Positions 7,573-48,410 of a stretch of 64,000 nucleotides of DNA are shown one piece after another. The translations under genes were made by a program, and so were the position numbers. Origin of the DNA: an uncultured Verrucomicrobiae bacterium (GTDB lineage: Bacteria > Verrucomicrobiota > Verrucomicrobiia > Limisphaerales > UBA11358); contig CAWJTA010000002.1 in NCBI GenBank assembly GCA_963845665.1, forward strand, positions 611,388-675,387, given 5' to 3'. Each line of letters opens with the position of its first letter. Positions within the stretch are counted from its first letter, which is position 1. Below the pieces are notes generated by a model. It was not told where the DNA came from. It saw nothing but the letters and a program-made list of their open reading frames with translations, and did not search any database.

Positions 7573-7606
7573 TTAGTTCCTTGATTTAGGAACAGTGGGG
7601 GAGCAG
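7573..7606 (+). repeat. Upstream element, variant copy (TTAGTTCCTTGATTTAGGAACAGTGGGGGAGCAG)
   Basis: Shares GTTCCTTGATTT...GGGGAGCAG with the consensus element. It ends 12 nt before the 7618 start. Confidence 0.55.
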
Positions 7607-7617
7607 GGTGGCAGCGG

Positions 7618-8043
7618 ATGAAACCGAACACTTCACCTTGGACTATCAGGCAGAAGTGTATTGCCGATTGGGAGAAGATGCGCGGTGATGACGCGCGCCG
7701 GTTTTGTGAGCACTGTCAGAGACTCGTTTACAATGTTTCAGCGATGAGTCGTGAGGAGCGTGAAGTATTCGCTTCGCCTGCTGGTATGCAGGAGTGCATT
7801 TTTTATTCCCAGCGAAGCGATGGAGAGTTGGCTGACCTTTCGCTATTGGCAAAACTGCGGCGGTGGTTCCCTATTTTGCGCCTGGCGTGCCGGTCAGCAT
7901 TGGTTGCAATTTTACCTGTGGGCCTGACAGGTTGCGTGATGGGTGTACGTACCGATGTAAAAGTTACCCCAATTCCTCAAAACACATCGACCAATCTTCA
8001 GCAGAACACGAACCAGACCAGCGCTTTTGAAACTCCGCATTGA
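7618..8043 (+). CDS. Hypothetical protein with N-terminal Cys-rich motif and C-terminal TM segment
   Basis: 141-aa ORF with the motif C-x4-W-x2-M-x7-RFCEHCQRLVYNVSAMSREE (putative zinc-binding) and a hydrophobic segment ALVAILPVGLTGC. Confidence 0.55.
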   Translation: MKPNTSPWTIRQKCIADWEKMRGDDARRFCEHCQRLVYNVSAMSREEREVFASPAGMQECIFYSQRSDGELADLSLLAKLRRWFPILRLACRSALVAILPVGLTGCVMGVRTDVKVTPIPQNTSTNLQQNTNQTSAFETPH

Positions 8044-8055
8044 GAGCTGAACACC

Positions 8056-8370
8056 ATGCTGCACTTATTTACAGTCGCTGATGTGTTTGTGATTGAGGGA
8101 CGAGGTTGTGTGCTTGTGCCGGGATTGCCGACAGAACCCGGATCGCCGAATGTCAAGCGAGACGCAAGAATTCGACTAAAGACGCCTTCAGGCAAATTTA
8201 TCGATACAACTATCAGAGCGATTGAGATGATTACCTATCGCAAAAGGCCCAAAAAAATATGTTTACCGATTGAGTTACCCGACGGTATTGCCAAGGATGA
8301 TGTCCCAATTGGAACGGAGGTAATTTTACTTGAGGACGAATGTGAGAGCATTAAATCACAACGGGCTTAA
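8056..8370 (+). CDS. Small stand-alone protein resembling EF-Tu domain II
   Basis: The N-terminus LHLFTVADVFVIEGRGCVLVPG matches the start of the EF-Tu domain II beta-barrel (F-x3-V-x-DVF-x-I-x-GRG-x-V). It is 104 aa and starts 12 nt after the preceding stop. Confidence 0.55.
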   Translation: MLHLFTVADVFVIEGRGCVLVPGLPTEPGSPNVKRDARIRLKTPSGKFIDTTIRAIEMITYRKRPKKICLPIELPDGIAKDDVPIGTEVILLEDECESIKSQRA

Positions 8371-8385
8371 CATCGTGAGCAATTA

Positions 8386-8829
8386 ATGCATCCAGACATT
8401 GAAAAAGCTGAAACGCTCTTGCGTCCAATGATGCCGGACAAATTTTCTGTCACGTACGAGCCAGCCATGCCGGGTTCAAATGGCAAATTCTTCCGATGGT
8501 TTCAGGTTGTCTTTGCAGTTGGGCCCGGTGACGCCGCAGCCTTACGTGCGCAAGTGCACGAACTTTTTCCTCTTATGCTCGCTGCACTTTCACCATTATC
8601 TTCAGTCCAAGAGGCAGACCATATCACGCTGCGTGCTCGCCGGTTCCTTCCTGACATTGGTGCTGACCGTCCATTTATGTTCATTCAGGCGGACTGGACG
8701 GATGTTGCTGTTCGACGAATGCGAGACAATGGTGATTTTGCTGTTTGGGCCAATGAGTGTCTTACCTATCGCAACGAGCACGATAAGAACGACACTTTCA
8801 ATATCTCCAAAGACTACGCCTTGACCTGA
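8386..8829 (+). CDS. Hypothetical protein
   Basis: 147-aa ORF, 15 nt after the preceding stop and on the same strand, so probably part of an operon. I recognise no motif. Confidence 0.5.
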   Translation: MHPDIEKAETLLRPMMPDKFSVTYEPAMPGSNGKFFRWFQVVFAVGPGDAAALRAQVHELFPLMLAALSPLSSVQEADHITLRARRFLPDIGADRPFMFIQADWTDVAVRRMRDNGDFAVWANECLTYRNEHDKNDTFNISKDYALT

Positions 8830-8870
8830 GCTTCGGGATTAAACCATTCAATGGAATTGGTCGTCCCGTT

Positions 8871-9004
8871 GCGCCAATCCCCCTTCTGGCCCCGTCTTCC
8901 TTCCCCCCAGAGCGTATCAACACCAAAACGCAAAGCCAGGCAATCAAATCCTCATTCCATTCAGTTCCTACAAAGTTGTTCTATTGATTTTGGGGTAACC
9001 GGGA
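8871..9004 (+). repeat. Long-form intergenic element, copy 1 (ends in a core-motif variant)
   Basis: Starts GCGCCAATCCCCC..GGCCCCGTCT.., contains ..CCAAAACGCAAAGCCAGG.. and ends TTGTTCTATTGATTTTGGGGTAACCGGG. It aligns with the elements at 9757-9960 and 10189-10350. Confidence 0.7.
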
Positions 9005-46833: not shown

Positions 46834-46866
46834 GTAGAAAATTAACTGTCAGCCTTCGGCTATCAG

Positions 46867-46897
46867 CCCTCAGCGATTTAGTTCGCTGAGGGTTTTT
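46867..46897 (+). terminator. Rho-independent terminator after the giant gene
   Basis: CCCTCAGCGA-tttagt-TCGCTGAGGG (a perfect 10-bp stem) followed by TTTTT. Confidence 0.8.
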
Positions 46898-46957
46898 GGT
46901 TTCTGATTGATGATTGCCAAGGCATTATGAATCATACGGTTCAATCGGTGGCACAAA

Positions 46958-47770
46958 GTGTTTGGCTACTTGTTTAGCGGACGTTACAAATCATTGATTG
47001 TGGCGGTCAGCGGAAACAACAATGACTCTAGACTGGATCGCCAAAGAGTCGTTGCTGAAAAACAAACGGCCAAAATATGCGATTGTGCGGGACCGACCCC
47101 TTTAGGTTTGGCGGCCGGCCCTGTCCTTGATGCTGCGGGTGGGGCATTATCTGCAGGTGCGAGGGCCCTAACGGGAGCCGCAGAAGACACCGGCCTGGCG
47201 GGAGTGGCAGAAGGCGCCGGCCTGGTGCGAGCGGCAGAAGGCGCTGGTCTGGCGAGGTCGGCGGGAGCGGACGGCCTGGCGAGGTTAGCAGGAGAGAGCG
47301 GTTCTGTGGACGCAATTGCCGCAGAGGCGGAAGGGCCGGAGTTTTTCCGTGGGGCAGAGCCGGGACAACCGGTTGACTTCACACCGCGTCCGAACGAGTT
47401 CAAAGTTGACGCTGATGGTTTTGTCAAACCCACTCACGGAGTTTCTGTATTCGATAATCCGGAAAGCGTTTTGTCAAGGGGATTCGAACCGAGGGAGATC
47501 ATAAACGAGAGCGTACCCGACGAACTCCAAATCATTCAGCGGGGTCGAGATCTAAGTCATTTTGAGATCATTCCAAGAGAGGCAGGAATGTTGACACCCG
47601 AGCAATTCTCGGAAATGCTAAGACAAATTCAAGTCAGATGGTACAATATACACTCAAGTGGCCGGATAATTTCGAGAATTATTCATGGCAGATCGAATCC
47701 AAGGGATGGTTCGTTGGCTTGGAAATTAATGTTGGTGGAAAAACGCTCAAACCAACCATTTATGATCTAG
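46958..47770 (+). CDS. Orphan polymorphic-toxin-like ORF: Ala/Gly-rich 9-aa repeats + ART-like (R-S-E type) C-terminal domain
   Basis: There is no in-frame ATG; the candidate start is GTG at 46958. Residues about 128-226 read EFFRGAEPGQP...HGVSVFDNPE...SHFEIIPRE. These resemble the R (xFRG), S and [QE]xE-(V/I)LLPR blocks of C3-like ADP-ribosyltransferases, with 32- and 40-residue spacing. The last 44 codons overlap the next ORF and look non-coding. Confidence 0.5.
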   Translation: MFGYLFSGRYKSLIVAVSGNNNDSRLDRQRVVAEKQTAKICDCAGPTPLGLAAGPVLDAAGGALSAGARALTGAAEDTGLAGVAEGAGLVRAAEGAGLARSAGADGLARLAGESGSVDAIAAEAEGPEFFRGAEPGQPVDFTPRPNEFKVDADGFVKPTHGVSVFDNPESVLSRGFEPREIINESVPDELQIIQRGRDLSHFEIIPREAGMLTPEQFSEMLRQIQVRWYNIHSSGRIISRIIHGRSNPRDGSLAWKLMLVEKRSNQPFMI

Positions 47771-47922
47771 CAAGGCTGTCACAAGATATCGCCGGAGAAT
47801 TCTCCAGCGCGGGTTACTTTTTTGAGCCCTTTTTGATTGTAATCCAGCAGGTGACCCGGGAAACCATTGAACGTGCGATCGCCGATCTCGCTAGAACTGG
47901 CGCACTGGAACGCCTTCTTTAG
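47638..47922 (+). CDS. Small immunity-like protein (94 aa) overlapping the end of the toxin ORF
   Basis: The ATG at 47638 gives MVQYTLKWPDNFENYSWQIESKGWFVGLEINVGGKTLKPTIYDLARLSQDIAG..., which looks well formed and globular. The immunity role is inferred from position only. Confidence 0.5.
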   Translation: MVQYTLKWPDNFENYSWQIESKGWFVGLEINVGGKTLKPTIYDLARLSQDIAGEFSSAGYFFEPFLIVIQQVTRETIERAIADLARTGALERLL

Positions 47923-48084
47923 CCGAGAAAGGGTTCGGTCCCGCATAACCGCATATATGAGCCGCCGAATGGAGGCGATTCCGGAAAAAGCTAGGTACGG
48001 CCAGGAAGCTTCGCGTGGAATATGCCGGGCCGATTTATTATCCAAGTACTATCGATGCCGTAATCGTGCGCCTTCGAGGTTTAA

Positions 48085-48366
48085 TTAATGCGTTTTACCT
48101 GATATTTCTCCCTGCAATTCCAAAGCTGGTTCGAAATCCGGTTGAATTTTCAAAGCGCGATTGACAGCAGTACGCGCATCGCCATACCGACTATTGCGAA
48201 GCAAGACTGTCGCTCGGATGTACGGAATATGCCGGTCATTCGGCGTAACCGACTCTGCATAATCGAGCGTTTTCAAAGCATTGGTCAATTGTCCCACTTG
48301 GTCTTCTACCTCTGCCTGTGCACAGAGGAAAGGTGGCGAAAATGGGTCCCATGCCGTAGCTCTCTT
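48085..48366 (-). CDS. Short TPR-like protein
   Basis: ..GDARTAVNRALKIQPDFEPALELQGEI.. is TPR-like. The start is uncertain; the candidate ATG at 48366 lies within the upstream-element copy on the opposite strand. Confidence 0.35.
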   Translation of the reverse strand, partial: KRATAWDPFSPPFLCAQAEVEDQVGQLTNALKTLDYAESVTPNDRHIPYIRATVLLRNSRYGDARTAVNRALKIQPDFEPALELQGEISGKTH

Positions 48367-48410
48367 CATTTGTTCCTTGATTTTGGGGCGGATCAGGAAC
48401 ACTTTTTGGG
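48364..48410 (+). repeat. Upstream element copy
   Basis: Runs CTTCATTTGTTCCTTGATTTTGGGGCGGATCAGGAACACTTTTTGGG. It ends 44 nt before the 48455 start. Confidence 0.7.

Follow-up and report, generated by a model that had tools for sequence, protein, structure and literature searches.

Promoter-bearing small repeats such as the Correia/NEMIS elements and other miniature inverted-repeat transposable elements (MITEs) are multicopy intergenic sequences of 50 to 400 nucleotides (nt). A further form of promoter reuse in bacteria is represented by putative mobile promoters (PMPs), highly similar 5' regions that precede nonhomologous genes, occur in several copies per genome, and are common to related genomes (Nijveen, Matus-Garcia and van Passel 2012; PMC3575422). 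Integron cassettes, which form one-orientation arrays of unrelated small open reading frames (ORFs), rarely carry promoters (PMC4889954). Here, we place alongside these systems an element from a 64,000-nt stretch of the genome of an uncultured Verrucomicrobiae bacterium (GenBank assembly GCA_963845665.1, contig CAWJTA010000002.1, positions 611,388 to 675,387; hereafter the window), which we refer to as the core and which recurs just upstream of small accessory genes. The element is real, lineage-specific, multicopy, and noncoding. The reading that the data support best, and in which we place moderate confidence, is that of a portable promoter making up the gene-side end of the conserved spacers that separate gene cassettes. 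Within the searchable literature, no paper contains the sequence string of the element, and no relevant account of a promoter motif from Verrucomicrobia was found.

The core resembles PMPs in that its 65 unique copies precede nonhomologous genes, with 56 unique downstream proteins yielding only 5 homologous pairs, and in that several copies occur per genome and are common to related genomes. Unlike PMPs, it lies within a larger modular spacer, in which the core is accompanied by a module starting at a stop codon and by a C-rich one that resembles a terminator; it is found in ordered arrays of uniform orientation at a tRNA hotspot, has no transposable-element ends attached, and features a noncanonical −10 box. 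The likeness to Correia/NEMIS elements and MITEs is by description only, as multicopy intergenic DNA that may supply neighboring genes with promoters, from which the core differs by an orientation relative to genes that is fixed and not random and by the regular alternation of its units with genes. No consistent terminal inverted repeats or target-site duplications were found at the unit ends, and the only sequence to show such ends (inverted repeats) is an insertion sequence (IS) at 19376-20751 of the window.

To gather relatives of the core, species-representative genomes and Joint Genome Institute (JGI) metagenomes were scanned once each with a pattern taken from the 5' half of the element. 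These scans gave 42 loci, two of which, from Desulfobacterales (L001) and Lentimicrobiaceae (L002), match the search pattern only and are chance hits. The remaining loci derive from three metagenome-assembled genomes (MAGs) of Verrucomicrobiia, one MAG labeled Sulfotelmatobacter, and soil metagenomes. A profile hidden Markov model (HMM) of the core finds 77 copies in the collected loci, 65 of them unique, on about 40 contigs, often with two to four copies per 8 kb and always in uniform orientation within a locus. A phage or plasmid origin was rejected, with no similar sequence in IMG/VR or PLSDB. The Sulfotelmatobacter loci (L004 and L008) belong to MAG SMAG_U15018, labeled Candidatus Sulfotelmatobacter (Acidobacteria); their contigs are identical to contigs with Verrucomicrobiia-type arrays from the same series of soil metagenomes, and the assignment may be a case of mis-binning.

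The promoter reading is carried by the pattern of conservation within the core. When only copies that the search pattern had not picked out are considered, information content is highest over TTTTGTTCCTTGATTT and over GCAGnnT, and the second of these blocks lies outside the pattern used for collecting copies. The spacing from TTGATT to CAGnnT is 17 nt in 55 of 57 unique copies. In this same set, A occupies position 2 of the second hexamer in 53 copies and T its position 6 in 55, with both present in 52, while positions 4 and 5 vary freely; A2 and T6 are the two positions that matter most for recognition of a −10 box. The arrangement is that of sigma-70-family promoters, in which the hexamers lie 16 to 18 bp apart and the −10 has A2 and T6. 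The universally conserved part runs from a TTTTG tract to a GCGA block and measures about 46 nt, the size of a core promoter. Upstream of this unit, homology breaks off at differing points between copies, and those copies that lack any upstream homology still retain the unit; conservation has its 5' limit at about −45. No candidate start codon falls before HMM position about 59, that is, upstream of the predicted +1. Of 56 start codons, about 8 lie at HMM positions 59 to 63, at the predicted transcription start and 9 to 13 nt past GCAG, hence inside the 3' part of the element. The core would accordingly read as a portable, sigma-70-family-type promoter of a soil Verrucomicrobiia lineage. In this proposed anatomy, TTTTG forms a T-rich tract around −45 and TTGATT a −35-like box; a G-rich spacer with a constant length of 17 bp follows, and then CAGnnT as a −10-like box that keeps only A2 and T6, with transcription predicted to start some 7 to 8 nt past CAGnnT at the A of a GCGATA block. 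Leaders would range from 0 to about 120 nt around a median of about 38 nt, and a small number of transcripts would lack a leader altogether.

Several observations weigh against a promoter. A scan with the sigma-70 consensus (TTGACA/TATAAT) calls none of the cores, and CAGnnT agrees with TATAAT at only two to three of six positions. In the same lineage, tRNA genes have promoters with a canonical TATnnT −10 box (TATGAT, TACTAT, TATTCT), so the housekeeping sigma factor would bind the core weakly at best. The 17-bp spacer and some 15 nt past the predicted start are moderately conserved, which a promoter does not need, although this conservation may reflect only common descent. The invariance of TTGATT is partly due to ascertainment, since this hexamer was included in the pattern used for collection. 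Finally, two other kinds of spacer end, termed “P-long” and “alt” and described below, also precede ORFs and do so without the two-block motif, so that promoting transcription is probably not the only thing that the spacers as a whole do. An earlier reading of the window from sequence alone (the sequence-only reading) had held that the element does not look like a sigma70 −35/−10 pair; this agrees with the consensus scan but not with the geometry and the pattern of conservation, and of the explanations which that reading had offered, a promoter or operator is the one best supported, the noncanonical −10 notwithstanding. As a promoter, the core would probably be either read by a sigma factor other than the housekeeping one or a weak site in need of an activator. 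Other promoter classes were considered and rejected: the would-be −24 GG positions of a sigma-54 promoter are poorly conserved on inspection of the profile, an extracytoplasmic function (ECF)-type GGAAC −35 on the antisense strand lies at the wrong distances from CGTC or TCAAA as read from the sequence, and a second canonical downstream promoter (GCGATA-N16/17-TATAAT-like) is present in only a subset of copies.

The position of the core relative to genes is biased. Of 54 copies, 49 have a same-strand ORF of at least 60 residues that begins no more than 150 nt downstream; on the antisense side the count is 26 of 54, and random positions give 55%. This bears out the orientation toward ORF starts noted earlier. 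The genes so placed are diverse. Most of the encoded proteins lack a Pfam match, many have signal-peptide- or lipoprotein-like N termini, and those that can be assigned include GNAT acetyltransferases, prepilin-type proteins, a Tle1-like hydrolase, ankyrin, macro and redoxin domain proteins, a 2'-5' RNA ligase, and a halogenase-like protein.

A location that is always 5' of genes, a conserved GCGATATACGAACCGGCGGT block that follows, and local hairpins in some leaders are also what one might expect of a transcribed regulatory RNA in the 5' untranslated region (5'-UTR), be it a riboswitch, a leader, or the target of a small RNA. This alternative, which the sequence-only reading had allowed, is most improbable and largely refuted. 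RNAalifold yields zero consensus pairs on the 57 unique core copies; no Rfam family matches the element at gathering or E ≤ 1 thresholds, with tRNAs as the only Rfam hits; a start codon inside the element in about 8 of 56 cases is at odds with a leader; and the intolerance of the 17-nt spacer to insertions and deletions fits DNA geometry better than RNA folding. The earlier statements that the element is noncoding and is not recognizable as any RNA family are thus both borne out. An antisense “MGQ...” protein starting from the conserved CCCAT was rejected since its frame is not conserved among copies, with the same DNA read in two frames in different copies and often with early stops. Likewise discarded were a structured RNA on either strand of the core or of the type A module described below, for which no consensus structure emerged, and the G-rich long-range hairpins of one copy, which are not reproduced in others.

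Within the window, which has a GC content of about 54% and encodes PEP-CTERM, PATR, and TPR proteins, the consensus 20-mer with up to three mismatches has four matches, compared with 0.02 expected by chance. Eight copies are significant when searched by nhmmer with the profile HMM built from the copies (E = 1.7e-17 to 4.7e-10), and the same eight were recovered independently by a repeat search as families D4 and D5 (Table 1). All eight are intergenic, each facing the start of the adjacent ORF, and public gene calls agree with the ORF starts at 7618, 19252, and 21652. Ten copies had been proposed from the sequence; the two at 8976-9004 and 24832-24855 go undetected by the core HMM at E ≤ 10, and the former falls in a degenerate type A module. 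The consensus proposed at the time is correct, although conservation reaches further than was then described, over about CCCAT...GCGATATACGAACC, or 60 to 75 nt. Five of the window copies are solitary upstream of genes, some of them beside a divergent gene or an IS. The ORF start in the copy at 26053-26128 suggests a leaderless transcript.

Table 1 Core copies, spacer modules, and the array anchor in the window (coordinates are those of the 64,000-nt stretch)
Feature	Position	Strand	Support	Context
Core copy (variant)	7559-7620	+	nhmmer E=5.9e-12; family D5	ORF start 7618; short “type B” spacer remnant precedes
Core copy	9913-9987	+	nhmmer E=1.7e-17; exact 20-mer match	ORF start 9973; full type A module fused upstream; −35-like TTGATT at 9935-9940
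Core copy	14483-14547	-	nhmmer E=3.3e-10	Downstream FAD-dependent halogenase-like gene 13118-14428 (Pfam Trp_halogenase)
Core copy	16726-16798	-	nhmmer E=1.8e-15	−35-like TTGATT at 16778-16773; downstream membrane protein gene 16181-16711; upstream divergent gene 16827-17792
Core copy	19249-19317	-	nhmmer E=8.5e-15	Downstream lipoprotein gene 18809-19252
Core copy	21674-21739	-	nhmmer E=4.7e-10	Downstream small membrane protein gene 21344-21652, then macro-domain gene
Core copy	26053-26128	-	nhmmer E=1.8e-12	ORF start 26071, 11 nt past GCAG block
Core copy outside arrays	48359-48430	+	nhmmer E=2.1e-13	Downstream ORF 48455-49087
Possible degenerate ninth copy, nonsignificant	22490-22553	-	nhmmer E=0.22; 61% identity to D4	Downstream PEP-CTERM gene 21723-22481
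Type A module, degenerate	8844-8985	+	nhmmer 48.3 bits; alignment	
Type A module, full	9712-9932	+	nhmmer 147.8 bits	Abuts core 9913-9987
Terminal type A (10148-10345) then “alt” block, no core	10148-10400	+	nhmmer 150.7 bits	End of left array
P-long spacer	11698-11784	-	nhmmer E=6.9e-12	Spans stop codon of Na+/H+ exchanger gene to start of ORF 10938-11687
tRNA-Arg(CCG)	10741-10817	-	ARAGORN, Rfam; synteny by blastn	Array anchor

The core is one module of several. Type A is a noncoding module of roughly 220 nt that consists of a 5' terminator-like hairpin with a T-run, a tract of about 100 nt that is C-rich and G-poor (38 to 45% C, 6 to 20% G), and a T-rich 3' part. The hairpin is retained even where its sequence differs, and together with the C-rich tract it resembles a terminator with a Rho-utilization-type tract; type A as a whole has no consensus structure on either strand and no conserved reading frame. 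The further upstream blocks that the sequence-only reading had attached to several copies, TTCTGTTCCGGTTCG and GGTGAT..CCCCAT, make up the 3' part of this separate module. A second module, termed P, begins where the upstream gene has its stop codon, often with the sequence GCCTAAC, and carries as CCTTGAATTTTGG a block that is present in the core as TTTTGTTCCTTGATTTTGG. These modules are combined into three forms of spacer: P, type A, and core (300 to 400 nt); P, a short remnant, and core, termed “type B” (about 133 nt); and P-long (about 133 nt), without a core.

An alternative is that the core is an operator, bound by a transcription factor of its own or by a nucleoid protein so that accessory genes are coregulated or silenced, with their promoters elsewhere. 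The strongly conserved 17-nt stretch TTTTGTTCCTTGATTTT is longer than a −35 box, the block in the P module is a near-identical direct repeat of core sequence within the same spacers, and TGTTCY repeats are found in the 3' part of type A. We nevertheless judge an operator quite unlikely. Where the start codon follows GCAG so closely, a separate promoter cannot fit in downstream; the sequences upstream of solitary copies are unrelated, so there is no conserved upstream promoter at those sites; and −10-like hexamers occur downstream in only a subset of copies. Little probability, in our estimate, also attaches to a functionless core, that is, a relic of segmental duplication or gene conversion of a single intergenic region under concerted evolution. 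Such a history would fit the 70 to 85% identity of whole 130- to 400-nt spacers, signal-free parts included, between copies and species, as well as the ragged upstream boundaries of homology. However, the core is more conserved than flanking coding DNA and is so in a position-specific manner, with A2 and T6 kept and their neighbors free; orientation toward genes is near-universal; and the core persists where the rest of the spacer is lost.

Returning to the promoter reading, in tandem arrays type A precedes the core and would terminate the upstream unit; since type A would terminate and the core promote, each small accessory gene would form its own insulated transcription unit. Both arrays of the window point at tRNA-Arg(CCG), with plus-strand copies approaching from the left and minus-strand copies from the right. 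This tRNA gene is a conserved array anchor in several genomes, and the genes of the arrays differ between them. The terminus composed of type A and alt adjoins tRNA-Arg(CCG) in the window and in loci L017, L018, L027, and L040; in L014 and L023, the array ends at the tRNA and a partial type A with alt is found on the other side of it.

Such arrays invite comparison with integrons, and the sequence-only reading had raised the junction of mobile gene cassettes as one possibility. Specifically, the core could be one arm of a site-specific recombination site, attC-like or of a new type of cassette junction, with the recombinase encoded elsewhere and the position upstream of genes a by-product of cassette structure. 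Like integron arrays, those described here consist of unrelated, mostly single-gene units in one orientation, separated by conserved spacers that lie 0.4 to 2 kb apart, and the cargo is typical of cassettes (GNAT, small unknown membrane proteins and lipoproteins). In roughly half of the P modules, the spacer starts at the upstream stop codon with a GCCTAAC-like sequence that matches RYYYAAC, and GTTAGRY (GTTRRRY) ends three of six P-long copies. attC sites range from 57 to 141 nt in length; the P-long and the type B spacers, both about 133 nt, lie inside this range, and those composed of P, type A, and core, at 300 to 400 nt, do not. The hotspot beside tRNA-Arg(CCG), conserved with different content in each genome, points in the same direction. 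Integrons have been reported in Verrucomicrobia (PMC4889954), and an integrase could sit elsewhere on the 3.3-Mb source contig.

Several of the features that define an attC site were nonetheless not found. Single-stranded DNA folds of whole spacers are no better than those of shuffled sequences (z = −1.4 to +0.6). Duplexes between the 5' and 3' arms of core-type spacers have a mean z of −0.34, and cognate arm pairs are equal to noncognate ones (−12.04 versus −11.99 kcal/mol); for P-long arms the mean z is −0.25, with two of six pairing well. A descriptor of the canonical arrangement R''-UCS-L''...L'-UCS-R' (UCS, unpaired central spacer), made by us and able to find an aadA1 attC control (13 of 14 matches), scores none of 16 spacers better than their own shuffles. 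GTT stands at the would-be R' in no more than 43 of 57 cores; of the 14 that lack it, 11 still keep A2/T6. Furthermore, the conserved part reaches beyond the would-be crossover point, and five window copies upstream of genes lack any 5' arm. No tyrosine recombinase was detected in the 294 kb of the window and loci: a tblastn search with IntI1 gave no hit below E = 2, and Pfam scans of the window ORFs and of the ORFs flanking the loci contained no Phage_integrase, in one case among the best 25 of 69 families. Pairing of the GTTRRRY end of one spacer with the R'' of the next spacer downstream was also considered and rejected, being suggestive in two to three P-long cases and absent for core-type spacers. 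Because the tests of pairing, geometry, and integrase came out negative, we do not classify the element as an attC site, and we regard a recombination site, the main rival of the promoter reading, as unlikely; the promoter-like character of the core is a further difference from integron cassettes. The earlier proposal of a cassette junction thus stands as a description of context (a spacer end between unrelated single-gene units in arrays of one orientation) but not as an attC-type recombination site.

A tentative reading that builds on a recombination role of the spacers, and which we regard as possible though doubtful, is that of a nonintegron cassette system, in which single genes would lie between 130- to 400-nt spacers that provide a terminator and a dedicated promoter, possibly one read by an alternative sigma factor, and in which hotspot arrays at tRNA-Arg(CCG) and at the 3' end of comEC would turn over by recombination within the spacers or by means of an unknown recombinase. 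The conserved spacers would also offer homology for the exchange of units. For one homologous unit present in two genomes, the shared sequence covers core, leader, and gene; it reaches no further than the 5' edge of the core on one side and the stop codon on the other. Locus L008 shows synteny with the window for the core and for the divergent gene upstream of it (75.6% identity by blastn between window 16820-17495 and L008 5332-6005), and the downstream gene is different. The macro-domain gene, second behind the core in the window, has an ortholog directly behind the core in L032. If the core is a promoter, the accessory genome of these abundant uncultured soil bacteria has an expression signal specific to the lineage, and the core would also serve as a sequence tag with which the flexible genes of this group can be found in metagenomes. 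If the spacers also mediate exchange, they would provide a parallel to integrons in the swapping of accessory genes, without hairpin sites or an integrase and with each unit carrying its own promoter and terminator. The predicted start nucleotide, the two critical bases, and the defined junctions are testable sites.

Several other observations concern the arrays and their anchor. At the equivalent array-end position in L009 (2841-2917) is a tRNA gene 97% identical over 75 nt to the tRNA-Arg(CCG) of the window, with the anticodon CCA and called by ARAGORN as tRNA-Trp, which is either an anticodon-shifted paralog or a sequencing error. Between tRNA-Arg(CCG) and the array terminus in the window lies an 80-residue ORF, 10384-10626 on the minus strand, GIY-YIG-type as judged by reading its sequence, with 76 to 84% nucleotide identity to counterparts in L014, L018, and L023. 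A 779-bp direct repeat of 95% identity in L004 (3737-4513 and 6522-7298; the same in L022) flanks a three-unit array, and its first copy is the 3' end of comEC. This repeat is the footprint expected of Campbell-type integration of a circle by a single crossover, or of a tandem duplication; in the former case, the circle would have carried a diverged comEC 3' end together with the cassettes. In L014, at about 470-640, an inverted type A fragment (GGTCTGGCTTTGTGTTTCC, the reverse complement of GGAAACACAAAGCCAGACC) is found downstream of a cassette, and spacer modules can therefore also be rearranged.

The IS at 19376-20751 lies directly upstream of the core copy at 19249-19317, about 60 nt away. 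It is bounded by 33-nt terminal inverted repeats at 19376-19408 and 20719-20751 (82% match) and encodes a 431-residue ORF with a weak match to rve, the DDE integrase core; the protein belongs to a cluster of 11 members that occurs on two contigs. The window harbors a second, unrelated composite repeat family at about ten sites in both orientations (15976-16109, 24307-24403, 25025-25190, 31949-32101, 38612-38840, 40901-41021, 41566-42123, 50096-50242, 52493-52620, and 55712-55779). This family carries the hairpin CCGCCCGCTTTACGGGCGG as well as GCGCCGTCCCTACCA blocks, also matches L003, L007, and L022, and looks like a repetitive extragenic palindromic (REP) or MITE-like family. The TypA/BipA GTPase is split into ORFs 27015-27734 (GTP_EFTU N-terminal part) and 27888-29003 (EFG_C/BipA_C C-terminal part), with a gap and a change of frame between the halves that represent a frameshift, a pseudogene, or an assembly error. 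Finally, the adjacent large TPR proteins encoded at 57657-59876 and 59884-62007 are tandem paralogs, whose DNA is 73 to 81% identical over 57834-57931/60028-60125 and 59272-59571/61403-61702.

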